This document shows positions 17,181-35,154 of a stretch of 58,392 nt of DNA, one piece after another; position 1 is the first letter of the stretch, and every line of letters begins with the position of its first letter. The notes beneath the pieces were generated by a model that had not been told where the DNA came from, made no database searches, and worked only from the letters and a program-made list of their open reading frames with translations. A program made the translations under genes and the position numbers. This DNA is from a virus (Duplodnaviria; Caudoviricetes). The stretch is taken from positions 1-58,392 of IMG/VR virus record IMGVR_UViG_3300021427_000036, one strand, 5' to 3'.

Positions 17181-17186
17181 AGAGGA

Positions 17187-17215
17187 ATTCTATCGGACTC
17201 GATGAGACCTGTCAA
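17187..17215 (-). promoter_or_regulatory. Leaderless promoter of the methyltransferase with a palindrome in its spacer
   Basis: TTGACA-ggtctcatcgagtccga(17)-TAGAAT-N6-ATG. Confidence 0.8.
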
Positions 17216-17611
17216 CTCTTTGTTCTCGCATCCACCGTTCTATGGCACGGGAATGGGATATCTGGAGAGCTGGAATGGGACGAGATTGGCTTTTTCTGGG
17301 TTAGTTGGCTATATACTTGCTGTTGGTTGCTTGGATTTTGTCTCGGATGGATTTGGGACGGGCGGGGTTCATGCATGGTTCTACTTCGTGGGGAGGAAGG
17401 AAGGGTGTGGGGGAAGTAGGCACGCGATGAATTTCGGCGCCGGCCCGAATTCGAGCTCGCACCCGCCGGCTTTAATCATTATTTGCGATCAATCGCAATC
17501 GGAATTCATTATGGGCAGAATCGAATTTTATTCGTCCATAGGTTGACTTTCGATCACCTTTCCTGTTTAATGGTCATTACAAGCAAGCGACACGAAATGA
17601 GGTGAAACAAA

Positions 17612-17836
17612 ATGTCAAAGTCAATCACTCCAACCGAATTCGGTGATAAGCACGGCTATTCGCCGAAAACGGTCCGGGACGCAATGCGGTCGATCACCGA
17701 TAAGGCTGATCAGCCGGGCAGCGGTTCCCGATGGGCGATCGAAGTCGGTTCCGAATTCGAGGCAGCGCTTATCAAGCGTCTCGCCGACCGAAACGGTAAT
17801 CGTCGGGTCGTCACCGCCACGCTGAAAAAGGCGTGA
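17612..17836 (+). CDS. Small winged-HTH-like DNA-binding protein
   Basis: ITPTEFGDKHGYSPKTVRDAMRS...PGSGSRW; SD GAGGTG; followed by a hairpin. Confidence 0.7.
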   Translation: MSKSITPTEFGDKHGYSPKTVRDAMRSITDKADQPGSGSRWAIEVGSEFEAALIKRLADRNGNRRVVTATLKKA

Positions 17837-17838
17837 TG

Positions 17839-17870
17839 AATTCGGGGGGTCAGAAATGGCCCCCCGAATT
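17839..17870 (+). terminator. Hairpin/terminator
   Basis: AATTCGGGGGGTCA-GAAA-TGGCCCCCCGAATT followed by an A/T run. Confidence 0.75.
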
Positions 17871-18323
17871 AAATTAATTTAATTTCGCAATTGAATTCGG
17901 GCGGGGCGTGGTCGCGTGTCGCGACCCCCCCGCTGCCGACGCGCCCGATCCCGCCCGCACTCGACCCTTGCCCGCCGCAACCATTGCGCCCGCAACGATC
18001 CCCGCCTGCGCCTGCCGAAACTCGCCCCTGCCCACGCGCCCCCGCCTGCCCGACCCCCGCCCCCCGGTCTCATCGAGACTCGGCGAGTCTCATCGAGTTT
18101 AGGTTGGCAAAAGTCCCCTGTGTCCTTACCGGTCTCAATGAGACCGCCGCATGACCCTCACGCGAACTCTACCAGAACCAGTAACTCGACTTCAGCTCCG
18201 GTCTCAATGAGACCGACCTGACCCGAGCAGCCGGCTTCGGCGAGATCGGTTTGGAAAAAGCGCCTGTGTCCTATACCCGTCTCCCCCGCCCCCCGGCATG
18301 AGCCGGAAGGCGAGGGCGCGGCG

Positions 18324-18611
18324 TCAGTAGTCCATGTTTATGCAGATGAAATGGTCATCGTGTCGATCATGGAGAACCTGGCCCCCGGCGTCGGCGCATT
18401 CGGCCCAAGCATCGGGAGAATCGTCGATGTGAGCTGCAAGCGTTTGCGGTGGGGAAACGTCGCAGTCAGTCTCGTCATGGATGGAGTCGAGGAGAATCAC
18501 CTCGTTTTGGCAAGGTGGCTTTCCGGGTGTGTTGGCTGAAAGCGTCGGATCAGCGGGGGTGCAAAAAGACGCAAGCCCCGAAATCGCGATCGCGGTTAGT
18601 GTTTTGATCAT
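18324..18611 (-). CDS. Secreted Cys-rich small protein / possible lipoprotein
   Basis: Signal-like MIKTLTAIAISGLASFC; five Cys; leaderless promoter. Confidence 0.65.
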   Translation of the reverse strand: MIKTLTAIAISGLASFCTPADPTLSANTPGKPPCQNEVILLDSIHDETDCDVSPPQTLAAHIDDSPDAWAECADAGGQVLHDRHDDHFICINMDY

Positions 18612-18617
18612 ACCCCC

Positions 18618-18783
18618 ATTATATCAGGGCTCAGCGACAATGTCACCGTCCGGAAGCCTCCCGATATCCTGGAGTGTACCAACAGCCTCGGCAAGCCTAG
18701 GGCTACTCCCGGTCTCAATGAGACTAGCCCAGGACAGTGTAAGGTCCACGGACGGTGACAAGGCACATGAGCCTTGATATAAT
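18618..18783. promoter_or_regulatory. Divergent leaderless promoter pair with central palindrome
   Basis: Both strands read GGACGGTGACA-N17-TATAAT-N6-ATG; palindrome at 18711. Confidence 0.85.
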
Positions 18784-18789
18784 GGAGGT

Positions 18790-19047
18790 ATGATCAACAC
18801 CTCACCCCAATACGAGGTTCACGTACATCTCGTTGACGTTATCGTAGCTTTACGCTGCGAGGCTGATCGAGCCGAACGCGAACAGTTCCCAAACGTTGCA
18901 AAACGCCAGCGCGCCCTCGCACTTCACCTGGAAAACGCTGAACTTCAACTCAACGCCCTACCTCATCCGGGTTACCGCCTCGAAGCTGCGGTTACTTACC
19001 GCTTCGTTCCGGTCATCAACCCCGCCCTGAAACCCGAATTCCGCTGA
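18790..19047 (+). CDS. Hypothetical early protein
   Basis: Leaderless promoter upstream, terminator downstream. Confidence 0.7.
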   Translation: MINTSPQYEVHVHLVDVIVALRCEADRAEREQFPNVAKRQRALALHLENAELQLNALPHPGYRLEAAVTYRFVPVINPALKPEFR

Positions 19048-19061
19048 TCCACCTACCGATC

Positions 19062-19086
19062 AAGGCCCCCACACCGGGGGCTTTTT
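19062..19086 (+). terminator. Intrinsic terminator
   Basis: AAGGCCCCC-acacc-GGGGGC followed by TTTTT. Confidence 0.8.
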
Positions 19087-19219
19087 CGCCACCTCATCGT
19101 CAGTCTCAATGAGACCGTAAGAAACCACCTCAGAACCCTACCAGAAACTCTACCTAAGCCCCAGTCTCAATGAGACCACACCCTCCGAGCCCCATCAAAG
19201 TTCAGGGCATCACCCCGGA

Positions 19220-19591
19220 TTAATCGTGAAGTTCAGCTAGTATGAAGCTAGCAACGGTTGGCATTGCGTGCTTGGCGCAAAAGCGGTAGGTATCGGGTTC
19301 GTTCAATAGCTCAGGCGCATCAGCGATTGTGAGCAAGCACCAAGCTGGTTCCGGGCATAGCAATTCGGAGCCATCGTGAGGTTCAGCATCAGCGTCAACG
19401 AGAATCGTGCCATCGTCGCCTGGCGATAGGATTGAGTTGAGATATGCCTCGGTTTGATAGTCGTGTTCGCAGGTAAAGCCCGAGTTGGGATTTAGCCGGT
19501 TGATCGCGAGAAAAGCTTCAGCACCGTTTGAGTATTGAGCGATAAAGCTCAAGTGATGTTGCTCAGCTTGCGAGTTGATCGCGAGTGTCAT
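19220..19591 (-). CDS. Hypothetical early protein
   Basis: SD AAAGGAG; promoter at 19641-19674. Confidence 0.65.
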   Translation of the reverse strand: MTLAINSQAEQHHLSFIAQYSNGAEAFLAINRLNPNSGFTCEHDYQTEAYLNSILSPGDDGTILVDADAEPHDGSELLCPEPAWCLLTIADAPELLNEPDTYRFCAKHAMPTVASFILAELHD

Positions 19592-19640
19592 CGGAGTCTC
19601 CTTTCGACCCTTGATTGGTTCGGAGTTGCATCATATACCC

Positions 19641-19674
19641 ATTTTATCATATCTCGAGACCTCTGTCACCGTCC
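19641..19674 (-). promoter_or_regulatory. Early-family promoter
   Basis: GGACGGTGACA-N17-TAAAAT. Confidence 0.75.
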
Positions 19675-19832
19675 CGAGTCCTCCAATGTTCCTCCAATAA
19701 ACCTCAAGCCACGGTCTCAATGAGTCTCAGCGAGACTCTCGGTCTCATTGAGACCCGCCGCAATGTGCTGAACCACCGGTCTCAATGAGACTCATGGTTC
19801 TTGTCGAGTTCCAGTGAGATTGCGTAGAACGG

Positions 19833-19862
19833 AAAAGCCCTAGGCGTTCTAGACCTAGGGCT
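19833..19862 (-). terminator. Intrinsic terminator
   Basis: AGCCCTAGG...CCTAGGGCT followed by TTT on the minus strand. Confidence 0.75.
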
Positions 19863-19874
19863 CCCGTCATCGAG

Positions 19875-20165
19875 TCACTCGGACTCGGCAAGTTCGGTGA
19901 CGGCGTCGTCGTCGGCCGGCGCGTCGTTGCGCTTGGCGTAGGCGTCGAGCAGCTCGTCAGCGCGTGCCGGACTGAAGACCCAGCGGCCATTCTCGTTCGC
20001 CCGTTCCCCGGTGTAATCGCGGAGCCAGCGTCGGAATGACTTGGAATCAGTGCCGGCGGCCGTGGCGAGGTCCTTGGCCGAGAAAGTGATTTCCTCAGCT
20101 TCGGTGACCTCGGTGTCGGCCTCAGTCGCCTCGTCGGCGACCGGCGTAACTGCGTTCTTGGTCAT
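19875..20165 (-). CDS. Winged-HTH-like protein with acidic arms
   Basis: FSAKDLATAAGTDSKSFRRWLR...GRWVF. Confidence 0.75.
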   Translation of the reverse strand: MTKNAVTPVADEATEADTEVTEAEEITFSAKDLATAAGTDSKSFRRWLRDYTGERANENGRWVFSPARADELLDAYAKRNDAPADDDAVTELAESE

Positions 20166-20215
20166 GATGGTTTTCCCCCCTTTCGGTATGAGGTGTCGTC
20201 GTTGATCATATAACC

Positions 20216-20371
20216 ATCATATCAAAGCTCGTAAACGATGTCACTGTCTTGAGACCTCCTCTTGTCCAGGAGTGTACCCAGAGCTTCGGTGAGCCTCAGG
20301 CACATCCCCGGTCTCAATGAGACTGTTAGCGGACCAGAGACAGTGACAAAGCATGCGAGCTTTGATATGAT
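20216..20371. promoter_or_regulatory. Second divergent leaderless promoter pair with central palindrome
   Basis: Both strands GACAGTGACA-N17-TATGAT-N6-ATG; palindrome at 20310. Confidence 0.85.
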
Positions 20372-20377
20372 GGGGGT

Positions 20378-21043
20378 ATGATGAATCAAAACCCCACACC
20401 GAATACCCCATCCCAGCATCTCTCGATGCCCGATCCATGCTCCCACTTCACCCGAATGGATGTGATCCGAGCCCGACTGGCCGGGGACAACGATGCCCTC
20501 GACTACATGCTCGACGCCGGCTGCGACATCCATGAAGCTGACATCCAGGACGACATGGACTATCTCGGAAGGCACGGCCTCTAACATGAAGATGACCAAC
20601 AACCCGGCGACATCCGATCAAGCTGATGTCCAAGGAAACTGCGATCGCTGCGGTACCTTGATCCGCCGTTACCGAGGCCAAGGTGACCTTCGCTGCTCAG
20701 GCTGCGACGCGAACTACAACTGCTTCGGCCAACGCCTACGCGACGATCTCCGTACGAGGATCAATCCTTCCGAGTACGACGAGGACATCGACGATCTGAC
20801 TGGCGACGAGCTCAGCTACCACACCTGGGGCGAGGACTACTGATGCCCAAACAAAACTGCTTCTCAGTCCGGCCAGGGTCGATCCTGGTCGCCTGGGAGA
20901 CCACCTGGAAGGTGCTCGAGAACAACACGCTCGAGCAATACCTGATCCTGGCTGAGATTGACAACCTCGGCCACCGCAAACGGGTGCGCTACTCCTCAGG
21001 CCAAACCATCTTCCTGAGGTGGAAACCCGACAACCGCCTATAA
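20378..21043 (+). CDS. Three small early ORFs (20378-20584; 20586-20843 Cys-rich; 20843-21043)
   Basis: Leaderless first start, tightly coupled stops/starts; CDRC..CSGC zinc-ribbon pattern in the second. Confidence 0.65.
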
Positions 21044-21692
21044 TCTACCCAAATCCCCTCGGGGCGGCCTCACGGCTGCATCGTGGAAGACCTCCGGTCT
21101 CAATGAGACCTGCCGGGGCATTTGTAACGGTCTCATTGAGACGTATGGTGGCAGCAAAGTAGCCTCCTGGTAGACGAATACGCCGAGCAGCCAAGTATCG
21201 GTGAGTTTGTGTTTCCAAAGTCATTCTAGTCCTATACCCGGACAAGGCTCAAGTGGTACGTGAGAGCGTTTTTGGACTCTTTTTGTCCCGTAAATGGCGA
21301 AACAGTGTTCTAGACACGGTAACTTCGGAAAACAGAACTTCACCCTTAGTTTGCGGACATGCCCCAAACACCCGGTTTCCCGAACACCTGTTCCCGCTAC
21401 CTTCACTTTTCCATCCACCAAACTCCAGAAACTACCTATACCCCAAATCCCAACTAAATCCCACTCCCCCGGACCATCATCCCCACCTTCACCTTCCCAA
21501 ATTCCCTACGTCTCCCCCAGCAATCACCCTCTCAATCACCCGATGACCCTCATTCAGAATCGCACGGACTCAATAAGACAGCTCTCAGGTCATTTGGGCA
21601 TCACCCTCACTCTCATAGCCATTCAAGAGTGTTGGCATATCCAGGAGCTTTACAAAAGCCCCGGCATCACCCCCGTATGTTCCAGAACATAC

Positions 21693-23586
21693 TCAAATAT
21701 AGTCCTCGTCGTTCAGCTCCAGACTACCATCGTATCGTTCGTATTCCTCGTCCCAAGCAGAATCTGAGGACCCAATTCCCTCTACTCGATCCCAAAGCTT
21801 ATCGACTTCCACACCTTGCCTGCGAGCCTTTCGCTCAAGCTTCCTCACGTACTTCGGAGGTAACGGTCTCCCCGTCACTGCCAAGCAAAACAGCCGCATA
21901 TAGCGGAACGGGTGCAGCATGCTGGTGAAAAGTGTCGTCATAGTATATTCCCGAACATACTACTAGCCTTGAGCAGTCCAGCAAGAGAGTTCGGTTTTCA
22001 GCATGTCGAGCAACTGGAAGTTCTCGTTCACCGCGTCCCGTTCAGATCCGGCGTCAATGATCGTAGCGATCACGTTAGCGAAGATGTCGAGCATCGTCGT
22101 CGCAATGTCCTCGATAGCTGCCGGGTTGACAGCAGAACAAGGTCCCTGATACTCAGGGTCCCGAAGCAATGGAGCTCCCTCAGCCCTCGTCATCTCAATG
22201 TGGTTGAGAATCTCGGAGGCAATCTCGTAGATTTCCATAGAAGCCATCAGTCAGCCGGCCCCGAGCTAATCGCTTTAGCGCTTAGCAACTTCCAGCCTTC
22301 AGGCACCTCGTCGCCCTCGGGGATCATCATGGAGGTGGACATCCCCGGCCCGTCGTCGGAGTCTGTTGCTGGCAACAGTTTCGTGATCCAGACCTTCCCA
22401 GCCATCATCGCGTCCATGTCAGCGGAGATTCGAGCCCTCATTTCCTCCTCAGCTTCGGGAGAAAGCTTGTTCTCAGTTACCCCGTACCCCGGGATGTAAA
22501 AGGCAGCAGTGCAGTTGGGGTTGTAGCACTTCCAATGTTCGCCCATGTCGTCAGTCACCTTCGGACGGTTGGGGAAGTCAAGGTCGGGGTCAAGATTCCC
22601 CCAGCTAGCCCCGCATCGTGGGCATGCCTCGTCAGGAACGAGATGGACGGTCAAAGACCCCGGCGAACCGGGCAGTCTTGCAGTCACCACCCGTCCCCCT
22701 CGTCGCATATGTCGTGAGTAAGTCACGTCAGTTTCCCTTCTTGTTTGTTCATCATGTGTAGAGCGAGCCAGCCATGTGATGTCAGAGCATCATCGTCGGG
22801 GACTCCATGATCATCCTCGGTGCAATAGATCTTCAAGGATGTAACATGGATGTCAGGCCAGCGATCAAGCGTTTCGTCCAGGAATTCAAAGTAGTGAATC
22901 CCTTGGTCGTCGAAGTCAGCAACGATCGTGAAGAAGTCGACCAGGTCAAAGCGGAAGAAGTCCCCGTTTTCCCCAGTAGCAGGGTCCCAAAGTTCATCGG
23001 GAATGTTCACCTTCGTCGGGCCGTTCGTTCCTTGCGTCCATGCGAGGGCCTCATAGAAGCCCCCGTATGTCGCAGCGTGGGGTGTTTTCATGGTATTGGT
23101 CATGTCAGATCCTTTCGTCAGCTCAGTTTCCCTCAGCCAAGATCAGGTATCGTGACCGTAGGGGAAGATGGCGCGGATTTGCGAGCATTCGTCGACTTGG
23201 TCATCGAAGCAAGAAGCCCAATCGCCAAAGTGCATCGGGCAGAGCGAGAGGCTCATGGCGATTTGTGAGAGTTCATCGCGGTAGAATTCGCAGTCCCAGA
23301 TCAGTTTCAGATCATCGAGAATGCGTTGGGCAAAGTCACGCGGCAAATGTTCGCGGTAGCCCCGTGCGAATTCGTCTGAGATGTCAGCCTCAGGCATGTC
23401 GAGGTAGTCGCGGATGAAGCCTTGCGCGTCGTCGGCGATGTCGTTGGAGCAGATCACCATGGAATCGTCGTCGGTGAGATGCGGGTCGTAAGCGAGGATT
23501 TTCTGGATTCGTTTGAGCGCAGCTCGCGAGAGATCCAATTCCTCGGGGCTTTGATTGGGGTTGGGTTTTGGTTGATTGATCATCAT
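21693..23586 (-). CDS. Operon of five hypothetical ORFs (23586-23143, 23103-22723, 22726-22247, 22247-21963, 21941-21693)
   Basis: Coupled ORFs downstream of the promoter at 23592-23625. Confidence 0.65.
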
Positions 23587-23591
23587 ACCCA

Positions 23592-23625
23592 ATTATATCA
23601 AACCCGTGTACTTTTGTCACCGTCC
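23592..23625 (-). promoter_or_regulatory. Early-family leaderless promoter
   Basis: GGACGGTGACA-N17-TATAAT-N5-ATGATG. Confidence 0.8.
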
Positions 23626-23659
23626 ATAGTCCTTTGCTCGTCTCATTCATTCCTCGCAA

Positions 23660-24346
23660 TTACCTAGTCAAAGCCTTGCCGCACATCGAACAAAATCGCC
23701 AGTTTCGACTCACGAACCCTTTACACCCCCCACACCTTATGGCTTTTGTGGGCATTCGAGGCTCTTCGCCATTCCGCTCAGCATCCAGTTTCGCCACCCT
23801 AAGCCGAGCGTCCCTAACTAGACTCAAAAGTTCCTGATCCATTCTAGACTTAATCTCAAGCATACGCTCGCTTCCCACTATCAAGCCTAGAGTCTTATAC
23901 TTCTTTCCGGACCCTGATGATTGCGGACCTCGTGTCCCTGCTCTACCCCGCAGGTCATGCTCAGATGCCATGCCCGTGCGTCCCTTCGCCTTTTCTATTC
24001 CGGCCTTACCACCCCCTGATCCCCCACCCATACCAGCATCGGCCTTCAATGCCCTGTGGAATAGCATAGAGTAGAACTCCACAAATTCGTCCGGCAGCAG
24101 AAAGAGAATCTCAAGTCCCATTCTCCCTTCCGCAAGTCCCCCTGATTCCAGCAATTCCCGTGCCATGGATCGACGTCCAGCAAAGAACCCCACCACCTGG
24201 CCCACCTGGCCCACCTGACCCCCCGAGTTTCCCCTTCCCCCTCCTCGCTCAAGTCGGCGGACCTCTTCCAGGAGTGTTGCATGTCTCTCACTAGCCTTAC
24301 TTAATTCCCGTAGCCTAGCATCGAGGAGTGTTAGCTCATTATCCAA
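23660..24346 (-). CDS. Hypothetical protein with C-terminal zinc ribbon
   Basis: CGGC...CSMC; GQV tandem repeat. Confidence 0.6.
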   Translation of the reverse strand: MDNELTLLDARLRELSKASERHATLLEEVRRLERGGGRGNSGGQVGQVGQVVGFFAGRRSMARELLESGGLAEGRMGLEILFLLPDEFVEFYSMLFHRALKADAGMGGGSGGGKAGIEKAKGRTGMASEHDLRGRAGTRGPQSSGSGKKYKTLGLIVGSERMLEIKSRMDQELLSLVRDARLRVAKLDAERNGEEPRMPTKAIRCGGCKGFVSRNWRFCSMCGKALTR

Positions 24347-24402
24347 GAGTGTTAACCCACTTCCAAGTGTGTTGTTTCTTCGTTTTAACTAGAGTTTGAT
24401 TA

Positions 24403-24506
24403 AGTGCATCGAGCCATTTCAGTCATTTATGGGTATCGCCCCTTATGGGGCGATATACCCAAATAACATGAACTGACTTTATGCGCTCAACCAAGTGCGA
24501 TGCACT
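24403..24506. repeat. Nested inverted repeats in an AT-rich intergenic gap (candidate origin or terminator)
   Basis: GGGTATCGCCCC-ttat-GGGGCGAT(AT)ACCC core; outer AGTGCATCG/CGATGCACT. Confidence 0.65.
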
Positions 24507-24566
24507 GGGGTTGTCTTGAACTCGAAATCGGGTTCAGTCTGTACGTGGTTACAAGAACATGACCAG

Positions 24567-26663
24567 TCATGTCGAATCCTCGGCGTTCTTAGTTGCGTGG
24601 TATTTGTGATCCCGTTTTTGGACGAGATTAGCTTCGACGAGTCTGTTGAGTTGGGCGTGAACGGAACCTGGTTGGAGCCCGGTAGCCTGAGCGATTGTGG
24701 CGGCAGAGACCCATTCATCGTTCACCGTCAGATAGCGGTAGGCCTGGCTATATTCGCCTATGGGGCGTCCGCGTTTCCCATTCGTCGATTTGCGTCGCGT
24801 CGATGAGTTTCCATTGCCTGAGGGCTGTCCCTGGTGATCCGTATGGCTTCCGCCCCCATCGCTCGCATCATCAGGTCTGATCGTGACTTGCGGAGCCCAG
24901 GAGCGATATCGGCGCCCGTTGATTCCAGCAATGGTGAAACCTGGCACGGGAGCGTTCTTGGATTCTTGCTCGCAAACTATGGTACCTCCCCTGCCCAAGC
25001 GGAAATACATAGAGTCTTCGGCCCAGGCATGGTTAGCAACAGAACCCAGGAGCAGCTGTCCGCCTCGCTGATAGCTTGCCTTTGGATCGGTTTTCTTGAG
25101 GTGGTGGATCAGTTGGATAGCCACCCCGTGCTTCCGTGCAAGTTGTTTTAGCGGAGCGAAGATCTTGGTGGTCATTTCCTGAGCCCTGTTTTCCTCAACG
25201 TCCCCGGCCATCATCATCAGTGGATCCAGGACCAGCAGTCGATAACCATCCCCCGAGGCCTTGTCGGCCAAGACTTCATCAAGCCATGATTGCCAGGATT
25301 CGTCGGAGATGGTGAACGATTGTCCTATGTAGGCATCAATATCTAGACCATCGCCCACACTGACCCCATCGGTTACTGGTGGTAGCCAGATGATATCCCC
25401 ATTGGTGCCCTTCACCAACTTGTCGGCTATTTTGGCAGGCCATACTTTACCTACGCGGGCCTTGATGAGTGGAGCGGAATCTTCTTCCTGAACGTATAAC
25501 ACCGGGCCTGGTCGTTCCACTGTAAAGTACCCCAGGAAGGGTTGACCTGAAGCCACCGATAAAGCCATGTCCAGGCCGGCCCAACTCTTGAAAGTTTTTG
25601 GCTGTCCGGCGATGAACCCTACAGCCCCCTCGGTGAGAACATCACGGATGAGCCAAGTCGGAGACTTGAGATTTCGGATAAGAGTGAAGAGATTTGTAGG
25701 CTTTGGTCTGGACTCAAGTTCTTCAAGAAGTTTCTCCGTATCCTCCGGTGTCCTAGCCATGACAGCCTTGTGGGCCTCCGTGGTTAAGCGTCGGAGTTCA
25801 TCCGACCTACCTTCGAACTTGTTCCAGACTGTTGCTCGAACGATGGCAACGATTTCCATAGCCGTGCAACCAGCGTCAGCCAGGTCTCGCTCGATTTGCC
25901 AGAGAGTTTCGCTACGATCGCCAGCAGCAACTCGAGCCGAAACCAACTCTCGAACTCGACTGCTGACCTTAAGCCGAACTCGAGCCCACACCGCATGGCG
26001 GTCGATGTGTTCAATCTCATCCTCGAGAATCTCAGTGACGGGGCCAGCTCCGCCGGGAACTTCAGGAAGGTCTACGAAGCTATCTGAGAAATACTGTTGA
26101 CCTTCGTCCCAAAGGAGTTTACCAGTTGGTGACTTTCCATCCTTACCCCTATACTCCGGTTTGTGGTTGATCCAAGTGGGTAGCCGAAGAAGTTGCGTCG
26201 TATCCCAACCGCTGGGGTCAGCCCCTAGGTAGTAGGTGAGTTGATGGTTTTCTCGACCATGCCAGGAAGCCCCTAACATATCCCCACTGGCAATGAGCCA
26301 AAGAGCCTGGTGCCGGCCGGGGGATGTTTCCCAGGCGATTGTTGGTGGATAATCCACTATACCTCGGGGATCCACTTCATCCAGATCAGCCCAAAGGGCT
26401 CTTTCGTCGCATTGGAACTCAGTTTGACGTACCCGCTCTTCGAAGAGCATCGGACACCAGTACACTTCATTGTGTCGGTTGGCGTCAAGGTGGTTGATGA
26501 TCTTGTCCTTATCCCGAGGCCAATAGAAAGCCCTATTTTCCTTGTAGCTCAAGATGCGTTCTCGTTTGTCCTTGCAATCCCCCCGAATAGTAGGGAAGAA
26601 GCAGTAACCCTTCTGCCTACCCCATGCCTTACTGACGATCTTGAGTATCTGTTCAGCTTCCAA
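24567..26663 (-). CDS. Primase (RepB/prim-pol-type) fused to RecA-like AAA_25 helicase and C-terminal HTH
   Basis: ALWADLDE, WETSPGRHQALW, QLLRLP; Walker A AGQPKTFKS; VLYVQEED; LVLDPL; IHHLKK. Confidence 0.88.
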   Translation of the reverse strand: MEAEQILKIVSKAWGRQKGYCFFPTIRGDCKDKRERILSYKENRAFYWPRDKDKIINHLDANRHNEVYWCPMLFEERVRQTEFQCDERALWADLDEVDPRGIVDYPPTIAWETSPGRHQALWLIASGDMLGASWHGRENHQLTYYLGADPSGWDTTQLLRLPTWINHKPEYRGKDGKSPTGKLLWDEGQQYFSDSFVDLPEVPGGAGPVTEILEDEIEHIDRHAVWARVRLKVSSRVRELVSARVAAGDRSETLWQIERDLADAGCTAMEIVAIVRATVWNKFEGRSDELRRLTTEAHKAVMARTPEDTEKLLEELESRPKPTNLFTLIRNLKSPTWLIRDVLTEGAVGFIAGQPKTFKSWAGLDMALSVASGQPFLGYFTVERPGPVLYVQEEDSAPLIKARVGKVWPAKIADKLVKGTNGDIIWLPPVTDGVSVGDGLDIDAYIGQSFTISDESWQSWLDEVLADKASGDGYRLLVLDPLMMMAGDVEENRAQEMTTKIFAPLKQLARKHGVAIQLIHHLKKTDPKASYQRGGQLLLGSVANHAWAEDSMYFRLGRGGTIVCEQESKNAPVPGFTIAGINGRRYRSWAPQVTIRPDDASDGGGSHTDHQGQPSGNGNSSTRRKSTNGKRGRPIGEYSQAYRYLTVNDEWVSAATIAQATGLQPGSVHAQLNRLVEANLVQKRDHKYHATKNAEDST

Positions 26664-26747: not shown

Positions 26748-26862
26748 TGCGTGTTACCTGGCCCCTCGCCACCAGCTTAAGAGGACTAGCATTACCAGCA
26801 GTACTGCCAGTATACTAATGAACTTCCAGGACTCATCGAGACCGCGCCACAACTCAAAAACC

Positions 26863-28121: not shown

Positions 28122-28133
28122 CTCACCCCCTTT

Positions 28134-28577
28134 CTAATTGCGGTTTTGAAGCCCCTCAAGTTTGAATTCGCCGTCGGGGAAGATGATGTAGATCGGTCGG
28201 AGCATACTTCGAGCATAGCGGACTGTTGTCCAAGTGCCCGATCGTCGTTCCTCAGTCTTGCCCTTCGGACAAGCAATCAGACCTAGTTTCGCCTTCTCGA
28301 CGATGATCCGATCCCGGACAAGATAAGGCAGAACCGGATGTCGGATTTCGGCGTCGCAGAAAGCGCGGCTGGGGGATAGACCGTTGCGATCTTTGCCGGG
28401 GAATACTTCCCGGAAGATGCCCAGCCCCTTGCAGATGTCATCAAAGTCCTTGTCAGCCCCAGTACAGTCACCATGGACAGCATTTCCGGGGTGGATTTTG
28501 ATCAGCAGCCCGGTGACCTTGACGCTCTGTTCGTAGGTCATTCCAGCACGAGTACCAGTGAAACCTAGAATTCCCAT
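28134..28577 (-). CDS. SLOG-superfamily (DprA/YspA-like) nucleotide-binding protein
   Basis: GFTGTR, HGDCTGAD, YLVRDRIIV, RSGTWTTVRYA. Confidence 0.75.
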   Translation of the reverse strand: MGILGFTGTRAGMTYEQSVKVTGLLIKIHPGNAVHGDCTGADKDFDDICKGLGIFREVFPGKDRNGLSPSRAFCDAEIRHPVLPYLVRDRIIVEKAKLGLIACPKGKTEERRSGTWTTVRYARSMLRPIYIIFPDGEFKLEGLQNRN

Positions 28578-28578
28578 T

Positions 28579-29514
28579 TCACCTCCTCGGCTTAAATCGG
28601 ATCCAGGCAATTCCGTTGACGCAGATCCAAATTCGCCCGTCGTCGTGGGTTTGAATGCCCACGTCGCAGTCTAGTTGGTTGACCCCGTCAACGAAGTCCT
28701 GGTTTTCGATGGACAGGAAACCCTGTTGATGGGTCTCCGGAATGATCGGTAGTGCCATGTCAGCCCCTCAAGTATTCCCAGAATGCGGGGTCAGTGTGGC
28801 CCATGCCGCCAATGGATTCGACGGCATCGGTTGTTTGCTTGACGCGGTCGACGGCTTCATGGATGCCGTAGCCCTTGTCGAGTTCTTCATCGAACTTCTC
28901 GGACAAGTATTGCTCTCGTTCGGTCAGTTCGACGGTTCGGTCGTCAATTCGTTTCATCGTTCACCTCCTTTTTGGAGAGTTCGAGGTGTCGTTCGAGGAT
29001 ATTCCGGAACTCATTGGCATGTCGATTGGCGAGTTCCTGCATCGCTCGCCACTTAGCTCGATTATAAGCCTTGTGATAGAGCCTGACCTTTCGGCCATAC
29101 TCGGCATCATCAGAGGTCATCATCAGCCCTCGGCGAGTCGCACGAAGAATTCCCGGCAATCCGGGCATCGTGCGTATTGGAAGGTGTCGGAATTGATCAC
29201 CTCGTCAACGTCAGCTGAGTCGACCTGAGGAAAATTCTGGTCGAGCATGGCAACCAGCTGAGCGCGGTGGATCAGCTTGTCAGCAGAGTCGAGCAGCATG
29301 AGATTTTCGTGGGTGCAGGTCATTTCACCTCCCTTCGTCGGGGAGGAGTCCAGGTTTTGGGGGTGGCATAGACGCATTCACCCTTGACCCCGTGGACCCC
29401 CATAGGGACCCAGGCGTCATGCGAGTACTCAGTCTTGTAGACGCAGCCATCTCGCATCTCGGTGATGATCCATACCTCCCGCAATACCTCATATTCCGGA
29501 TCAGTGTTCATCAT
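28579..29514 (-). CDS. Small early ORFs (29514-29320, ~29323-29123, ~29123-28944, 28957-28760, 28758-28579)
   Basis: Coupled ORFs behind the promoter at 29521-29554; GGAGGTGA SDs. Confidence 0.55.
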
Positions 29515-29520
29515 GCATCC

Positions 29521-29554
29521 ATCATATCATATCCCCGAACTTGAATCACCGTCC
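29521..29554 (-). promoter_or_regulatory. Early-family leaderless promoter
   Basis: GGACGGTGATT-N17-TATGAT-N6-ATGATG; shares TCACCGTCCATAGTCCTT with the 23.6 kb promoter. Confidence 0.75.
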
Positions 29555-29876
29555 ATAGTCCTTCATTGTTCCAACTCTTCGCCGCTCGTCGATCCGTGGG
29601 CATCTCTCGTTCGATCATGCGATCATCACGCAGCGCATCATCTCGGAGGTCCTTACGGATCATTTGGGAACACTCTCAGGTCATTCTGGTCATTGCGATC
29701 GCATCATCACGCAAGGTAAACTGGTCAGCGTGTCCTCAGGAGAACCATCATAAGCTCTCCGAGCCGCTGATGTATAGCTAGCATAGCTAGCAATTCAGCA
29801 TGTTCTGGATCAGCTCCACATTGGTCCCGTAGCCTTGTTTCCTTTTCCTTGAGTCTGGCCTCAATGGACGGCAAGT

Positions 29877-32793
29877 TCAAGGGCATGGCTCGAATACCTC
29901 CTCGTAGTAAGCGGTTTGGTCATCTCGTTCGATATTGTCCCAAGTCACTTGGACTCTGTGCGACTTGTACTTCCAGTCCGAGGATTTGATGACTTCAACA
30001 ACCATTGCCCTATTCCCTCGGAAATCGACGACCCGGTCGCCGACTTGGAAACGTGGTTTGGCTTTTCGGACATATCTCACAAAATTTTTCCCCGTTTTAG
30101 CTCTGTTTCACTTTGGGACTTTCCCAAAATCGACGATGGGCTGCCACAACCCGACTTCGGCAACGTGAGTCTCAGCCTTCTCGTATGAGTGACTATTGTT
30201 CTCACAATACTCACGAGTTCCCTTGAACAAGGCCTCCTGCAACGTAGGAGCTTCGATCTTGTAAGTCGATGTTCGTTGAGCTTCGTTCTCGAAGTGGATG
30301 TACCAGGTTCTCAACTCAACTCCTTCTTGGCTTGTTCACGTTCTTCTAAGGTAGGTCCCCAACAAGGCCCATCATAGCCTTCCGGATGTCCATGCTCGTG
30401 GTGTATTTCCCACGCTCGCTTCCAGATATCAGCTTTCTTCGGTGTGTGACGGGTAGTCACGGTTCGCAGGCCTCTCTCAATCCCTGATAGGCACCCATCG
30501 AGATGATGTAGCCGAGTCGCTTGCCAAAGTCTTTCTCAGCCTGTAGGCGAGCAGCTCCAGCATCGGATCCCTTCTGGTAATAGTGCCCGCCCTCGCACTC
30601 CCACACTTCTTCGCAACTTGGAAGGTTAGGGTTAGAGGTGACTCCGTCCCAGAATATGTTCCAGGTCACCCAGTCCGTCTCGGTTTCGGCGAGACAGATG
30701 CCGTGAGGCTTCATTCCCTGCGTATACTGGACGACGAAGACGACCTCTAGTCGTGCCCCGTTGGATAGCTTCATGTGTTGATGCCCTCCTTGATATTCTG
30801 TCGTTGTTGCGAGCGGTATTGATGGATCTCCATCAGTCGATAGTCGGAAGATGTGATCTGGATTTCTCGGTAGTCACGGGGATACTTGTAGTATCGAGCA
30901 GCGACTGCCCCGAGTCGGTCAACAATCGTGATCCGGACTGTTGAGCAGATGGCGCACATGTGCCAGGTCGGTGTGCCGAAACTGGAGGCGCGTTGTACAT
31001 CAGTGAGGAACCAGTCATGTCGCCTGGTCCCCTTGCACTGATGGTATTGGTGTGGCTTGCGTCGTGTCATCAGTCCTTCAGAATCCTTCCCAGCATCTCG
31101 TTCTGCTTCTCGGTTAGGAAGGTGTCGGGATCTTCACCTTCATGGGTAACGAGCTGTCGGATGATGTCGCACAAGGTATCACAGATACCCTGGTCAGCAG
31201 CATAGAAGGGGACTATTTGTCCCATGATTTCTCCTCTTCTGGGTATTCATACACCCCATCAGGTGTACGATGTCGAGTCCAGCCATCAGGTACATCAGGC
31301 CAGCTAAGAAAGGCGGCGACCGCCGCAAGAAGATCGGGCATTCAATAGAACTCCCCGGAAGGATGCCCGTCGCTATCAGCTACGGCAATACGAGCTCTAC
31401 CGAAGGTTAGGGGCATCACGACCAAGAACCCATCACCCAGGGGTCGACCGAAGAGGTAACCCCACTCTGGCTTAAGCTCTTGAGTCATTCATCATCCTCT
31501 GGATCGTCCTCGTCCTCGTCGAAGTCATCGAACTCATCGGGATCTTCCACATACTCATCCCAATGTTCCATGTCGTACCGGTTTTCTTGGTACCACATAG
31601 CATGAGCATCCTCGTTCCAGTGCGCGTAGTCACTGACAGGTGGGATGAAGTCTCCCCGCTTAGCCATCACAGCCTCCTTGTATCGTCTGGGATGATCAAT
31701 CGTTTGTTAGTCAAACCTTGTGAGAAGGGGTAGCCCTCGGTGATCAAGTGCTCCTCGCACATATTGGCCCAGGGTCCCAACTTAGTTTTGCCGTCGTATA
31801 GAGCAGGTCTCTTGACCCCCATCTCCATACCGCAGAAGTCGCAATCAGGAAGTTCCCCGTGCCAGGGGATTGGGCTAGCCATTGCGCTGCTCCTTCCTGG
31901 CTTCTCGGACTTTGAAGAGGTCGTGTTCCTGGCGCAGAGTCGTGCGTCGAGGAGGCTTGGACGGATTTTGTTCGCGTTCTCTCATCATCAGAAAGATAGC
32001 GATCCGTCGCCTGCGTTCGGCCTCAGTTTCTTTGTCACGATCGCGTTTCACGGTTCACCTTGTCGAAGAGAGATTGGGCAGCAGTAGCTCCGAACTGAGC
32101 CTCAATGCAAGTATCGAGCCACTCTTCTGTGGCGATCTGCAGAGCCTCAACTTCAGCCTCATTCAGATCCAGCGTAACGATCATCCCCGCTCCCACACCA
32201 TCGCTTGGTAGCTGCAAGCAGCGAAGATAGTGGGGAGATCGATGCCTTCGTAGGCAGGATCGTTGGCGATGTTGAGGAATGTTCGCAATGCCATGTCAAG
32301 CATGCGATAGTTGGGAGGTCCATCGTCATCGTAGTCGAGCATGTCAGCGAGAGTTTGGATCGCATCCAGATCAGGGGCTCGGTCGATGGTGATTTCGGAT
32401 AGCACCAGTCGGTGCGGCCCGAAGGGTGGATCGTCAGCTTGGTAGGGGAAGCTGTTGCGATCGCAGGGATCGTAGCCAAGGTCACTCATTGGCAGCGTCA
32501 CCCTCGTCAGCGAAGAGTGCATCCCAGCACTGGGGATGAATCCCAGTCATCAGCACCTCGCGTTGTGCAGGAGTGAGCTTGGGGAAGGCATTTTGGATGT
32601 TCCCAGCAGTACCAGCAACGAAGTAATGGTAATACTCGGAACCGTCGAGGATCACTGGGCGAAATTCGCCGCAGTATGGGCAAGCGGGGATCAGCTGGTG
32701 TCGAGCTTCGACAGTGTATGGGTTGTTGGACCCATGCGAGAAGTCGAATACGAGAGGCAGCGTCACCCCCTGTGTGGTGTCATCATTCATCAT
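29877..32793 (-). CDS. Operon of about ten small hypothetical ORFs, several Cys-rich (e.g. 32482-32793, 31667-31882, 30771-31070, 30457-30774, 30108-30314, 29877-30080)
   Basis: Coupled minus-strand ORFs starting at the leaderless promoter 32800-32832. Confidence 0.6.
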
Positions 32794-32799
32794 ACTTCC

Positions 32800-32832
32800 A
32801 TCATATCAAATCTCGTTATCCGTGTCACCGTT
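32800..32832 (-). promoter_or_regulatory. Early-family leaderless promoter
   Basis: AACGGTGACA-N17-TATGAT-N6-ATGATG. Confidence 0.78.
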
Positions 32833-33123
32833 CTCGTTCCTCCCTTGTTCCTGCGTTTTTCTCAGGCGAGACCTCAAACGTAGCGACTGTCGTTTAGTGT
32901 AGCGCAACTCGAAGTTGAGAGGACAGTTGATGAAGTCAGATCGTTCCAGTCGACGACCTAGTCGCTCTTCCACACAACCGATGCAAAGCATGTGAGCCCA
33001 CCCTGTTCTCTCGAGCATGTCATCCCAGAGATAGAACTGAAGCATATATAGCTCACCCATCATGTAGGTGTCGTGTCCGCAGTCCTGGCACATCCGTACT
33101 TCATTCTGAGTATACCAGGTCAT
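32806..33123 (-). CDS. Hypothetical Zn-binding protein
   Basis: CQDC...LCIGCVEERLGRRL; SD AAGGAGG. Confidence 0.7.
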   Translation of the reverse strand: MTWYTQNEVRMCQDCGHDTYMMGELYMLQFYLWDDMLERTGWAHMLCIGCVEERLGRRLERSDFINCPLNFELRYTKRQSLRLRSRLRKTQEQGRNENGDTDNEI

Positions 33124-33139
33124 CTCACCTCCTTACACA

Positions 33140-33600
33140 CGAAAGGAGCAGGGCAGTCTGCAGCTCAGACCACCCCGCTCAACCTCCGCCATGGCACAGT
33201 TGGTGTGGTTAATCCCTGTTCCCTTCATCCACACCCCCAGCGGGTCTCTCGCAAGACATTGGGACTCTGATGATGACCGGGCCATGTTAGTGGATGGCAG
33301 GGAGTGGTCAAACCTACGCTCCCCACCATCCGACCATTTGGGTTGAGGATGTGAGGAGAGGTGGCACAAGCAAGCGACACATCCCCACCCTTTACCCTTG
33401 TCCCAGCGTTAGAGGGCACTCTAACCGTGCCTTTCTGGAGTAGGCCAATGGCTTGGCCTTATTGATCATCCGGCATGGGATACACTTCGCTTCTGGTACT
33501 TAGGTCGTACCCTAAGACCTCCTTCACTTTCTCTCCCTTCGCTTGGTCGACTCTTGCAGGGCATGCCGGTGCCCCCTGCTGGGTGTCTAGCCAGCAGATC
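33140..33600 (-). ncRNA. Candidate large structured non-coding RNA
   Basis: At least nine consecutive or nested helices; mismatches in three long stems resolve as G-U only on the minus strand. Confidence 0.6.
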
Positions 33601-33766
33601 ATTCCCCCACGGTGTAGCTGGCGAAGCTCGTCACTACAGCCTTGGGTTCGTCGAGGGAAACCTCGATGTCGATCAAGGGATGGTCCTCGTCGTCGACGAC
33701 TTCCAGTGCCCCCTGACCGGCACGTCGGATTTCTGTGAGCTGGTCGATCAGATCGTCGACGGTCAT
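33599..33766 (-). CDS. 55-aa protein MTVDDLIDQL... (not in ORF track)
   Basis: ATGA overlap with upstream stop; N-terminus resembles TVGDLIDEL of 35645-35944. Confidence 0.6.
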   Translation of the reverse strand: MTVDDLIDQLTEIRRAGQGALEVVDDEDHPLIDIEVSLDEPKAVVTSFASYTVGE

Positions 33767-34197
33767 TCGAAGTCCAGGTCTTCCAGTTCATCGAGTTCTT
33801 CGATTGCCTCCAGCTCGTCATTGTCGAGCTCGGCGATGTCGTCGATGTCGTCGATGGGTGGTGCCTGCTTCTTCTTGGTCTCGGAGCGGGAGCCCTTTGC
33901 CCAAGTCTTGAACTCGGCTTCGAGTTCGTCGAGGTTGTCGGGGGAAATCTTCCACCGCTTCCCTTGACCTACCTTGCCGAATTTCTTCCGAAGAAACTTG
34001 CGGAAGGTGCGCTGGTCGGTGCCGAACTTTGCGGCAACTGCCTTGGCAGTGAACCCTTCGACCGAGGATTCCGAATCGTCCGAGTCATCCGGGTCATCCC
34101 CGAGTTCCTCAACCTCTTCATCCTCGACCTCGAGTTCCTCGACGTCAGCGTCTTCCAGTTCTTCGATGACCTCAGGTGCCTTCCTGCGGGCCATCAT
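33763..34197 (-). CDS. Acidic winged-HTH-like protein
   Basis: FTAKAVAAKFGTDQRTFRKFLR...GQGKRWKI flanked by D/E tracts; promoter TTGACA-N17-TACGAT at 34254-34282. Confidence 0.75.
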   Translation of the reverse strand: MMARRKAPEVIEELEDADVEELEVEDEEVEELGDDPDDSDDSESSVEGFTAKAVAAKFGTDQRTFRKFLRKKFGKVGQGKRWKISPDNLDELEAEFKTWAKGSRSETKKKQAPPIDDIDDIAELDNDELEAIEELDELEDLDFE

Positions 34198-34298
34198 ACC
34201 CCTTTCTTGGTTTCTGTTGTCGGTGAGGAGTCTTCCCCTCATTTGATATTACCATCGTATCAAATCTCGATACCGATGTCAACGATTTGCGGAACGAA

Positions 34299-34745
34299 TC
34301 AGTCTTCGTCCTCGTCGTCGATCTCTTCCTCGTACTCCTCGTCGTCGCCGATGTCGGCTGCGTCGTCGGTGTTCTTGAGGGTTTGGATCCCTTCGTCCAG
34401 CTTCACCAAGTGGATGAAGGGGACGAGAAGTCGGGTGGTGTGACCGTCAGCAGGCGGTCGGCCCCGATGTGTGGGGAGTGAGTCAAGGTCAACGACTGCG
34501 GCACCTTGTTCCGGCTTCATCTGCTTGATGGTCGCTGAGCAGCCCTCAAGATAGCGGGGTGTGACCTTGTTGGTCAGCATGACCCGGTCGCCCTTCTTGA
34601 GTTCGCGTTGCAACCGTCGAGCAGCTCTCCGGTGGGTGATGTCGCGTCGTGACTGTACAGCCTTGGCGATTTCTTCGAGGCCGGCATCGTATTCACCGTC
34701 GTCGATATCGTCGCAAAGCTGCAACCAGTCAGTTGCGGTAACCAT
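34299..34745 (-). CDS. Hypothetical protein with SH3/KOW-like core and acidic tail
   Basis: LKKGDRVML...; SD GAAAGGA; promoter GGACGGTTACA-N17-TATCAT at 34799-34832. Confidence 0.7.
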   Translation of the reverse strand: MVTATDWLQLCDDIDDGEYDAGLEEIAKAVQSRRDITHRRAARRLQRELKKGDRVMLTNKVTPRYLEGCSATIKQMKPEQGAAVVDLDSLPTHRGRPPADGHTTRLLVPFIHLVKLDEGIQTLKNTDDAADIGDDEEYEEEIDDEDED

Positions 34746-35154
34746 AGCTTTGCTTCCTTTCTCCAGTCATCATATATCGCGTCGTGCGATATGATTCCAT
34801 GATATCAAATCCGCGAAACTTTGTAACCGTCCGGGGACCTCCTTAGAACCATTTTGTAACTCGCCGAAACTCGAACCTCCCCGGTCTCCCCGGTCTCAAT
34901 GAGTCTGGTCACAGTCTCATCGCGTCTACCATCAACATCAGACGAGATCAGATCTGAAACTCCCATTTAGAACACAAGTCCCCTCGACTTGGCTTCGGCG
35001 GGCACGAAATCCAAAGTCATTCTAGTCCTATACACGCGTCACGAGCAGCACGGGTGGGACGTTCCCCGCTCACCCTCGAGCCAGCGTCGGCAGCGTTCGT
35101 CATACGCGGTACACCCGCACGCACACTCATCGTCAGCGATTCGTCCGCTACCAT

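Follow-up and report, generated by a model that had tools for sequence, protein, structure and literature searches.

A conserved inverted repeat in the small-gene region of a soil phage genome is a candidate multi-copy operator

The dyad region of the phage genome

We studied a recurring 15-bp inverted repeat, the dyad GGTCTC-N3-GAGACC, in the phage record IMGVR_UViG_3300021427_000036. The stretch analysed (hereafter the window) is the whole virus record of 58,392 bp, which has a completeness rating of 100% and is circularly permuted, with the tape-measure gene overrunning both ends. Nearly all genes of the window lie on the minus strand, and 17.2–21.7 kb is the sole part with genes on both strands. 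This part sits between the end of a long leftward replication block and a leftward block headed by a DNA methyltransferase gene (16407–17180, minus strand), the first gene of its operon. The dyad region proper (17181–21692) holds eight small genes, organised as six short transcription units, and is 46.5% coding.

By counting matches in the window and in shuffled sequence, we found that the dyad recurs far beyond expectation. Exact copies number four (18131, 18200, 19741, and 21096) against 0.01 expected from 100 shuffles. Allowing one mismatch gives 13 sites, with none for a reversed control pattern, and allowing two gives 21 matches compared to 4.45 ± 2.17 in the shuffles (maximum 12). The repeat family reported in a preliminary description of this DNA is therefore real. 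One or two mismatches, at the outermost arm positions, are typical of the copies, and only the four named above are perfect. Twelve of the 13 sites with at most one mismatch fall within 17195–21143, a span of 3949 bp that makes up 6.8% of the genome (binomial P ~1e-13). The preliminary description had listed about 19 copies, and its 16 strong positions were right; the copies it placed at 18086 (better read from 18087) and 34913 each consist of a left half-site plus the centre, with four mismatches, and the one at 21566 has three. It had also put the copies between genes, and all 16 listed positions between 17195 and 21566 do lie outside the eight called genes of this 46.5%-coding region. The chance of an all-intergenic placement for 15 sites is 8e-5. 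On the plus strand, the centre reads AAT in 10 of 16 sites, the majority form as originally described, with ATT in two, ATC in two, GAT in one, and AGC in one. Restriction-site avoidance was considered and rejected: GGTCTC and GAGACC are not depleted outside the region, where 24 and 11 were observed, with ~27 and 22 expected genome-wide.

From left to right, the copies follow the layout of the transcription units. The dyad at 17195–17209 (one mismatch) fills the 17-nt spacer of a predicted leftward promoter, TTGACA-17-TAGAAT (17187–17215), which is that of the methyltransferase operon. Between the convergent genes 17612–17836 (plus) and 18324–18611 (minus) lies a cluster composed of 18066–18080 (one mismatch), a half-site with centre at 18087–18101 (four mismatches), and two exact copies at 18131–18145 and 18200–18214, the former abutting a second conserved element (element A, 18102–18130). 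A single dyad at 18711–18725 separates two divergent predicted promoters, P18646 (minus) and P18755 (plus); in contigs from three soil runs, a C at 18725 makes this dyad perfect, a strain variant. The pair at 19102–19116 and 19163–19177 (one mismatch each) stands between convergent genes 18790–19047 (plus) and 19220–19591 (minus), and no promoter was found near it. Four dyads at 19713–19792 (19713, 19723, the exact 19741, and 19778) occupy a tandem junction, 3' of gene 19875–20165 (minus) and upstream of P19669 (minus). Another single dyad (20310–20324) lies between the divergent P20244 (minus) and P20343 (plus), and a last pair at 21096–21143 (21096 exact, 21129 with one mismatch) follows gene 20843–21043 (plus).

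Three of the listed positions are remote from these. The copy at 34892–34906 has two mismatches and is followed by the half-site with centre at 34913. The copy at 26829–26843 (one mismatch) is doubtful: it lies within a possible 38-codon open reading frame (ORF), and the primase-helicase gene has a predicted TTGACA-18-TAAGGT promoter ~85 bp downstream of the copy. The match could be due to chance.

Taken together, these positions follow a simple rule, which is seen both in the window and in relatives. Divergent junctions have one dyad each (18711 and 20310), and convergent junctions have two or three (18066–18200, 19102/19163, and 21096/21129); the tandem junction has four (19713–19792). The earlier statement that every unit of the region is bracketed by dyads thus stands. 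Clusters also lie just past the terminators at 17839–17870, 19062–19090, and 19826–19862, the latter two read from the sequence.

Several other elements share these spacers. Element A, approximately TTTGGAAAA-n-C-n-CTGTGTCCT(A/T)TACC, has four copies, all on the plus strand (18102–18130, 18248–18278, 21210–21239, and 35008–35034), of which those at 21210 and 35008 have 23 identical bases in common. It always lies beside dyads, once abutting one (18131), and is kept in related contigs. No clear sigma-70 -10 hexamer and no Rfam match was found in it, and it could be the site of another protein or a different type of promoter. Seven of the 29 genomic GAATTC sites, several of them as CGAATTCG, crowd into 17185–17893 around gene 17612–17836 and its AT-rich upstream spacer; this crowd could represent another binding motif or belong to an origin or a packaging site. 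After the terminator of the same gene, 17880–18065 consists of 190 bp of C/G-rich, CCCGCC-like repeats that are partly kept in relatives and show strain variants in the form of 10-nt and 4-nt indels. Within this stretch, GGTCGCG-TGT-CGCGACC forms a 7-3-7 palindrome that is similar to the main dyad in its outer bases. A further ~270 bp (21290–21560), set between the final dyad pair and the point where the leftward gene block ends, are G-poor and C/A-rich with no convincing gene; a 157-codon ORF there (21294–21767) has no family match and a low coding score. Finally, the 95-amino-acid product of 18324–18611 (minus) opens with MIKTLTAIAISGLASFC and is 36–50% identical among relatives. Its start looks like a signal or lipoprotein leader, and the product is possibly a surface or exclusion protein.

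Predicted promoters and their helical register with the dyads

A consensus scan of 16.9–21.9 kb returned nine promoter-like sites compared to 2.5 ± 1.5 in shuffled sequence. Six of them match 10–11 of 12 consensus positions and share the form GTGACA/TTGACA-17-TAnnAT. Five of these strong sites, along with three more at 23620, 32828, and 34827, make up a family of eight near-consensus promoters of sigma-70 type with the common form GTGACA-17-TG-n-TAnnAT. Family promoters also carry a conserved ATGAT(C/G)AA six bases past the -10 hexamer, from which we infer that they are leaderless.

Within the dyad region, P18646 (18618–18646, minus; GTGACA-17-TATAAT with TG before the second hexamer) has an ATG 6 nt after its -10 hexamer and is predicted to drive 18324–18611. 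In the same way, P18755 (18755–18783, plus) would drive 18790–19047, P19669 (19641–19669, minus), which has a GGTCTC half-site in its spacer, would drive 19220–19591, and P20244 (20216–20244, minus) would drive 19875–20165, the gene of an HTH_17-like protein. P20343 (20343–20371, plus) is assigned the three genes 20378–20584, 20586–20843, and 20843–21043. Far to the right, P34827 (34799–34827, minus; GTTACA-17-TATCAT) is predicted to drive 34299–34745 and 33763–34242. The two remaining family promoters have no scored dyad: that at 23592–23620 (minus) retains a three-mismatch relic in the -61 geometry, and that at 32800–32828 (minus) a degenerate 6-4-6 relic in the -72 geometry. Two family promoters also start short ORFs of 15 and 23 codons, opening ATGAT, at 20165–20209 and 19591–19634 (minus). 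Both run into the beginning of the real gene downstream, one of them with an ATGA overlap, which suggests leaderless mini-ORFs coupled to the main gene.

To relate dyads to promoters, we assumed that transcripts start 7 nt after the -10 hexamer. On this assumption, 25 of the 27 family promoters in the window and its relatives have a dyad within 200 bp upstream, and the nearest dyad centres lie at -61 (5 promoters), -72 (8), -82 (1), -86 (3), -97 (3), and -107/-108 (5). In the window, dyad 18711 is centred at -107 from P18646 and at -72 from P18755, dyad 20310 at -108 from P20244 and at -61 from P20343, and dyad 34892 at -107 from P34827. At the tandem junction, three scored dyads lie at -86, -114, and -151 from P19669; copy 19723, with its AGC centre, falls outside the scoring. 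In addition, hexamers resembling GGTCTC or GGACTC occur 6 nt upstream of the -35 in five of the eight GTGACA/GTTACA-type promoters of the window.

When eight divergent cassettes were aligned, sizeable gaps appeared only beside the dyad: four on one arm (22, 22, 11, and 11 nt) and a single 11-nt gap on the other. Start-to-start distances in these cassettes were 158, 169, and 179/180. The gaps represent about four independent indel events, every one a multiple of 11. This argues, with the starts being predictions, that selection has kept the helical phase between dyad and promoter, and thus how the dyad is rotated with respect to the promoters on either side.

Conservation of the dyad as a sequence

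To find relatives, we scanned metagenomes for two dyads 18–48 bp apart, which returned 13 loci. Six of these are dyad-bearing contigs from soil metagenomes: L104 and its reverse twin L107, L111, L114, L115, and L116, all at 53–55% G+C. They hold 8, 8, 8, 10, 5, and 11 sites with at most one mismatch (L104, L107, L111, L114, L115, and L116, respectively) in 2.3–6.1 kb, and they align to 17–21 kb of the window mostly at 70–80% identity (67–90% across all blocks). The other seven (L105, L106, L108, L109, L110, L112, and L113) were left out as unrelated, with 0–2 sites and 40–70% G+C. In aligned orthologous spacers of five related lineages, the dyads are fully conserved blocks within diverged intergenic DNA, and the pair 21096/21129 is kept in L104 and L114 at an identical 33-bp spacing.

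The exact 15-mer occurs at 76 IMG/VR loci with one exact match each. Of these 76, only two (L009 and L070) have a second site of at most one mismatch; both have 68% G+C and were rejected as unrelated. The paired-dyad pattern matched no IMG/VR locus. Among 185,579 species genomes, the paired pattern was found at two unrelated loci, one in a Rubrivivax metagenome-assembled genome and one in a Natrinema coding repeat. Four syntenic IMG/VR phages (G001–G004), whose primases are 50–59% identical to that of the window, have dyad counts equal to those of the reversed control (3 vs. 2, 2 vs. 3, 3 vs. 2, and 8 vs. 7), and neither palindrome nor k-mer counts revealed a comparable palindrome family in them. 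Instead, G001 (L089) carries five same-strand copies of CAGCTGTGAGG (2797, 2817, 3668, 5187, and 13748). Their places match window dyad junctions, namely those after the homologues of 19875–20165 and 20843–21043 and the one upstream of the counterpart of the 34.8-kb unit. This suggests that junction motifs are lineage-specific.

A comparison set from the window region and five contigs (58 sites; 52 distinct 23-mers) shows which bases are held constant. Across the 52 distinct sites, positions 2–7 and 10–14 are invariant or nearly so. There is slight asymmetry: 44 of the 52 have a C just before the left arm and 44 have G at position 1, whereas position 15 is C in only 27. All 40 departures in the arms are one-sided, with none compensatory or two-sided; the two-mismatch filter lowers, without abolishing, the chance of seeing double arm changes. 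The one-sided pattern indicates that recognition is of the base sequence and not of a hairpin. In addition, RNA hairpins formed by the dyads would be weak (-0.2 to -10.9 kcal/mol) and are followed by 0–3 T in the next eight bases, whereas true terminators are separate from dyads, as with the 14-bp stem at 17839–17870. Searches of the window found no Rfam match at E ≤ 1 and no tRNA. The dyads thus have neither the stable stem and U tract of an intrinsic terminator nor the compensatory changes of a structured RNA.

Between the conserved modules, gene content varies among lineages. Homology blocks against L114 stop at 18818, 19807, 20395, and 20584, beside promoters or dyads. Of 103 alignment ends, 49.5% have a dyad or promoter within 25 bp, compared to 25.3% of random points. 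However, a bias is built into this test, since conserved islands are by construction the places where alignments stop. Soil contigs part from the window just after 20387 and at 19660, within promoter modules, although these contigs are possibly relatives or chimeras, with joint sides of 21–35 nt. Two further joints, 17958>19884 and 18744>20337, were not counted; their sides are 24–35 nt, and the second fits an L115/L116-like cassette rather than a deletion. The preliminary description had offered the palindromes as recombination anchors. Breakpoints at conserved promoter/dyad modules are indeed present, but with the test confounded they are more likely a consequence of the modules than their function.

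In the rest of the record, terminase, portal, capsid, and tail genes run from 11.3 kb down to position 1 and resume from 58.4 to 52 kb; lysis genes come after the tail genes, and then helicase, DNA polymerase I, exonuclease, Sak4, small genes, and a RepB-primase/AAA_25 helicase (24567–26663, minus). Among 91 ORFs scanned against Pfam or PHROGs, we found no integrase, ParB, or CI-like repressor, confirming for these ORFs an earlier remark on the first two. Identity of the capsid protein to those of Microbacterium, Arthrobacter, Gordonia, and Mycobacterium phages does not exceed 50%. Megablast gave no close phage record, and blastn against phage records matched only 82 bases of the methylase gene, in seven Cluster A mycobacteriophage records. 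DNA of the phage is present in four soil metagenome runs, all from one study and none of them an RNA run. Two collagen-repeat protein genes (12097–13176 and 15466–16104, minus) lie between the methylase and packaging genes, upstream of the terminase gene. The product of 15466–16104 matches Pfam Collagen (E 6.6e-17) and tail-fibre PHROGs, and that of 12097–13176 matches tail-fibre and collagen-like minor-tail PHROGs. Tail-fibre-like genes are unusual at this location, and the block is missing from L104. In addition, two endonuclease VII-family genes (45065–45379 and 47581–47922, minus) are inserted in the nucleotide-metabolism gene set.

A candidate operator, its possible reader, and its meaning

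The dyads form a real and conserved family and are very probably protein-binding operators. The preliminary description had proposed a protein-binding lattice, and the 40 one-sided arm changes, the conserved islands in five lineages, and the 11-bp promoter steps all support it. Going further, we give a little better than an even chance to the reading in which the dyad serves as a multi-copy operator and its reader is a dimeric winged-helix regulator encoded by the phage, probably repressing or insulating the small units. The operator would be C-GGTCTC-A(A/T)T-GAGAC-N, its base sequence being read by a dimeric DNA-binding protein of the phage. The controlled set would comprise the small, separately promoted units in 17.2–21.2 kb and one unit at 34.8 kb. 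From an upstream position at -61/-72, or whole turns further, and aided by half-site-like sequences at the -35 or in the spacer, the bound protein would hold or occlude RNA polymerase, switching strong promoters off after a first burst. Promoter-less clusters at convergent and tandem junctions would serve as auxiliary sites or as two-way roadblocks separating neighbouring units.

Repression appears somewhat more probable than activation. Three features favour shut-off: promoter sequences close to consensus, the overlap of some sites with the core, and sequences resembling half-sites beside the -35. The dyad centres do recall Class I (CAP-like) activation at -61.5, -71.5, and -82.5, with -61 (5), -72 (8), and -82 (1), but others lie at -86, -97, and -108, and all are counted from predicted starts. 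Class I promoters are weak and activator-dependent, whereas those found here agree with the consensus at 10–11 of 12 positions and carry a TG ahead of the second hexamer.

A small winged-helix protein is a plausible reader of the dyad. Three paralogous HTH_17-like proteins are encoded by 17612–17836, 19875–20165, and 33763–34242, and the most likely reader is the 74-amino-acid product of 17612–17836 (plus), a candidate on comparative grounds. Its gene is followed by the 14-bp-stem terminator at 17839–17870 and then by the first dyad cluster. The product is 83–85% identical across the dyad-bearing contigs, in which its SPKTVRDAMR helix is invariant; among the four dyad-free phages, G002 and G004 have it at ~37% identity, and it is missing in G001 and G003. 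A structure model (predicted local distance difference test, pLDDT, 85) has a helix-turn-helix, a wing, and a C-terminal helix. The protein itself has no Pfam match and hits phrog_21603 (E 4.9e-10). A profile search gathered 269 small relatives, some of which reach HTH_17 (28.7 vs. a cut-off of 27), HTH_24 (22.7 vs. 21.9), and MerR_1. Weak fold matches point to MerR-like winged helices, including gpNu1 and small-terminase DNA-binding domains, RacA, pSK1 Par, BldC, and Xis/TorI. The second candidate, the 96-amino-acid HTH_17-like product of 19875–20165 (minus), is predicted to be expressed from the dyad-flanked P20244, but its recognition helix is almost unchanged in the dyad-free G001 and G002, which weighs against it. 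The third paralogue (33763–34242, minus), acidic and 159 amino acids long, lies downstream of P34827. A further winged helix is found at the C terminus (residues ~648–689) of the 698-amino-acid RepB-primase/AAA_25 helicase (24567–26663).

A number of observations weigh against an operator that acts on promoters. The promoters and starts are predictions, so the -61/-72 figures depend on the assumed start, and orthologous copies account for many of the 25 promoter-dyad pairs. The two sets of distances, 61/72/82 and 86/97/108, are offset by about half a turn, meaning that no single looping or contact geometry covers all of them, and dyad-to-dyad spacings of 33–69 bp show no clear helical periodicity. 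About half of the window dyads (18066–18200, 19102/19163, and 21096/21129) have no predicted promoter in reach. Conversely, two near-consensus family promoters stand without a good dyad, indicating that the dyad is unnecessary for promoter function. In relatives, the methylase-side promoter has half-sites only or a degenerate dyad over its -10 hexamer. The authors describing repeats in Cluster O mycobacteriophages took promoter-distant copies as evidence against control of initiation, in the part of their report on which we draw (PMC4351075). With regard to the reader, fold matches of the 74-amino-acid protein are weak (best Foldseek E 0.38; best VIA Z 5.6, range 4–5.6). The choice of this protein rests on four distant genomes, in which the C-terminal winged helix of the primase differs as well.

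This last point touches on a different role for the dyads, as iterons of an origin or of replication control read by the winged helix of the primase-helicase. In phage P4, the alpha protein likewise binds repeats at ori and at crr, several kb apart. The protein found here joins RepB_primase and AAA_25 to a winged helix of its own (MarR_2, E 3.8e-5; HTH_24, E 1.4e-3), as expected of an initiator with its own DNA-binding domain; a one-mismatch dyad lies 166 bp upstream of its start, and the winged helix is strongly diverged in the dyad-free G001–G004. However, this upstream copy (26829) may be due to chance, and the dyad-bearing contigs stop short of the primase gene. The sites extend over 4 kb, interspersed with eight genes and with one set per unit junction, instead of forming a compact array; no dyads occur in a compact iteron array that includes an AT-rich unwinding stretch, and an origin would not explain the 11-bp register with promoters. 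We thus regard an origin as unlikely. Pure roadblocks or insulators, a symmetric counterpart of stoperators with any promoter effect secondary, seem to us similarly unlikely. They would account for the presence of dyads at every junction of the region, with two to four at convergent and tandem ones and one at divergent ones, and for clusters lying just beyond terminators, where read-through would arrive; a symmetric site also suits polymerase traffic from both sides. Yet the units already possess terminators, roadblocks have no need of an 11-bp promoter register or of a dyad inside a promoter spacer, and the stoperators of Cluster A are, in the sections of the reports used here, asymmetric, oriented with transcription, and spread along operons (PMC4351075, PMC9283540).

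It is quite unlikely that the dyads are sites for a host protein, such as a global regulator, nucleoid protein, or defence factor that the phage exploits or titrates. Syntenic phages lack the dyad, with G001 having its own CAGCTGTGAGG in equivalent places, which fits a reader travelling with the phage, and the scan of species genomes returned two unrelated loci. Recombination linkers, by which dyad/promoter islands permit cassette exchange between related phages, are very unlikely to be the primary role, even though lineage-varying gene content, homology ends, and soil-contig departures at these modules fit the idea. Aside from the biased end-point test and the uncertain origin of the contigs, recombination requires identity and neither a dyad nor a fixed 3-bp centre nor an 11-bp register, and few if any Cluster O repeats lie at rearrangement points in the available part of that account (PMC4351075). 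We consider it highly improbable that these are centromere-like or anchoring sites for a small MerR-like protein, comparable to the ram sites of RacA or the centromere of pSK1 Par. The matS/parS-like organiser proposed in the preliminary description draws on one observation, the weak fold resemblance of the 74-amino-acid candidate to domains of pSK1 Par (Z 5.4, root-mean-square deviation 3.0, 53 residues aligned) and RacA (Z 4.8, deviation 2.9, 54 aligned). Values of Z under 8 possibly reflect just a common small fold; the protein has three helices without a coiled coil or extra domain, no plasmid-prophage or partition gene was seen among the ORFs scanned, and the promoter register would again be left unexplained. 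Last, RNA or DNA hairpins acting as terminators, processing sites, or stabilisers are scarcely credible. A 6–7 bp stem with a 3-nt loop can form and a terminator scan caught one copy, but changes in the arms are never compensatory, energies are weak, U tracts and Rfam matches are missing, and many sites lie upstream of promoters, where they are possibly untranscribed.

An operator read by a phage protein has several precedents. The temperate actinophage phiC31 carries 17-bp conserved inverted repeats in many intergenic copies of its early region, bound by its immunity repressor. In phi29, the small protein p4 binds at about -70/-80 between divergent promoters and turns strong early promoters down once their first burst is over. 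The operators of Aca proteins usually overlap the core promoter. Part of a published account describes such Aca-type shut-off of strong early promoters by a small phage DNA-binding protein (PMC13551039). No sequence or fold relation of our candidate readers to p4 or Aca proteins is shown.

The closest likenesses are to repeats in actinobacterial phages, for which we draw on sections of the published descriptions. Cluster O mycobacteriophages carry a 17-bp repeat, 5'-TGTTCGGNNNCCGAACA, in a 7-3-7 arrangement; its function is unknown, and it is presumed to be the site of a dimeric phage protein (PMC4351075). It is missing from the host genome examined there (PMC4351075). Shared features are inverted arms around a 3-bp centre, many near-invariant copies, a greater density at one genome end, and many intergenic positions, along with the lack of an integrase or parAB in the sections used and SigA-like -35/17 bp/TAGAAT promoters. 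However, the sequence differs; the arrangement here is 6-3-6 (7-3-7 with the flanking C/G), with 15 copies in 4 kb vs. 34 along 70 kb. About one-third of the Cluster O repeats lie in genes, compared to none in a called gene here, and they are mostly away from promoters, whereas most dyads here are tied to promoters in helical register. Microbacterium phages of Cluster EG have an 18-bp inverted repeat, GATCAACCNNGGTTGATC, in 8–10 intergenic copies at the right genome end, likewise interpreted as dimeric-protein sites of unknown function (PMC7302621). As with the dyads, they are kept among members despite diverged surroundings, and no repressor or integrase is reported in the part of the description used. 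Their repeats lie 14–22 bp upstream of the start codons of leftward genes, in contrast to the dyads, which are 60–110 bp upstream of predicted starts or at promoter-less junctions. Thus, the dyad is of the same kind as both, a short inverted repeat around a 2–3 bp centre in many near-invariant copies that are mostly intergenic at the small-gene end (taken here from the gene map) and conserved despite diverged flanks. Still, its consensus differs from both TGTTCGGNNNCCGAACA and GATCAACCNNGGTTGATC and is not the sequence of either described cluster.

The stoperators of Cluster A, to which the preliminary description had likened the palindromes, are a looser analogy. According to the portions of the reports used, they are asymmetric, oriented with transcription, genome-wide, and read by the monomeric immunity repressor of temperate phages (PMC9283540, PMC4351075). 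The likeness lies in many copies of one short site, one phage protein (here a candidate reader), and an effect (here a proposed one) beyond that of a classical operator. In place of an asymmetric 13–14 bp site, we found a 6-3-6 dyad with both arms conserved across the 52 distinct sites. Asymmetry is confined to the centre and the outer base, and AAT sites flank genes of both strands. Twelve of the 13 sites lie in 3.9 kb outside called genes, with no integrase or repressor found. With a symmetric site that is clustered in 4 kb, outside genes, and mostly upstream of promoters, and with no lysogeny genes seen, counting the dyads as stoperators is not supported.

A more ambitious view, which we consider doubtful, is that one small protein and one dyad serve the whole region as a boundary system, a symmetric counterpart of stoperators in a lytic phage. 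The single dyad of each divergent junction would set both promoters from a fixed face of the helix, and the two to four dyads of each convergent or tandem junction would block polymerase both ways. The invariant islands would double as joints at which related phages swap promoter-gene cassettes.

Under the favoured reading, in which the dyad is an operator of a small winged-helix regulator, phage genes would be controlled in an expected manner with no new principle involved. Inverted repeats in the small-gene end of actinobacterial phages are already known, and what is new here is the sequence, which comes from uncultivated soil phages, the promoter register, and the junction rule. The promoter family, the 11-bp register, the junction rule, and a short list of candidate readers make the function of the dyad testable. 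In addition, the region brings together, in a small natural set, strong and apparently leaderless promoters, terminators, and a candidate operator, all of them possible parts for actinobacterial genetics. Moreover, if the boundary system were true, it would provide a function for the so far unexplained repeats of Cluster O and Cluster EG phages.

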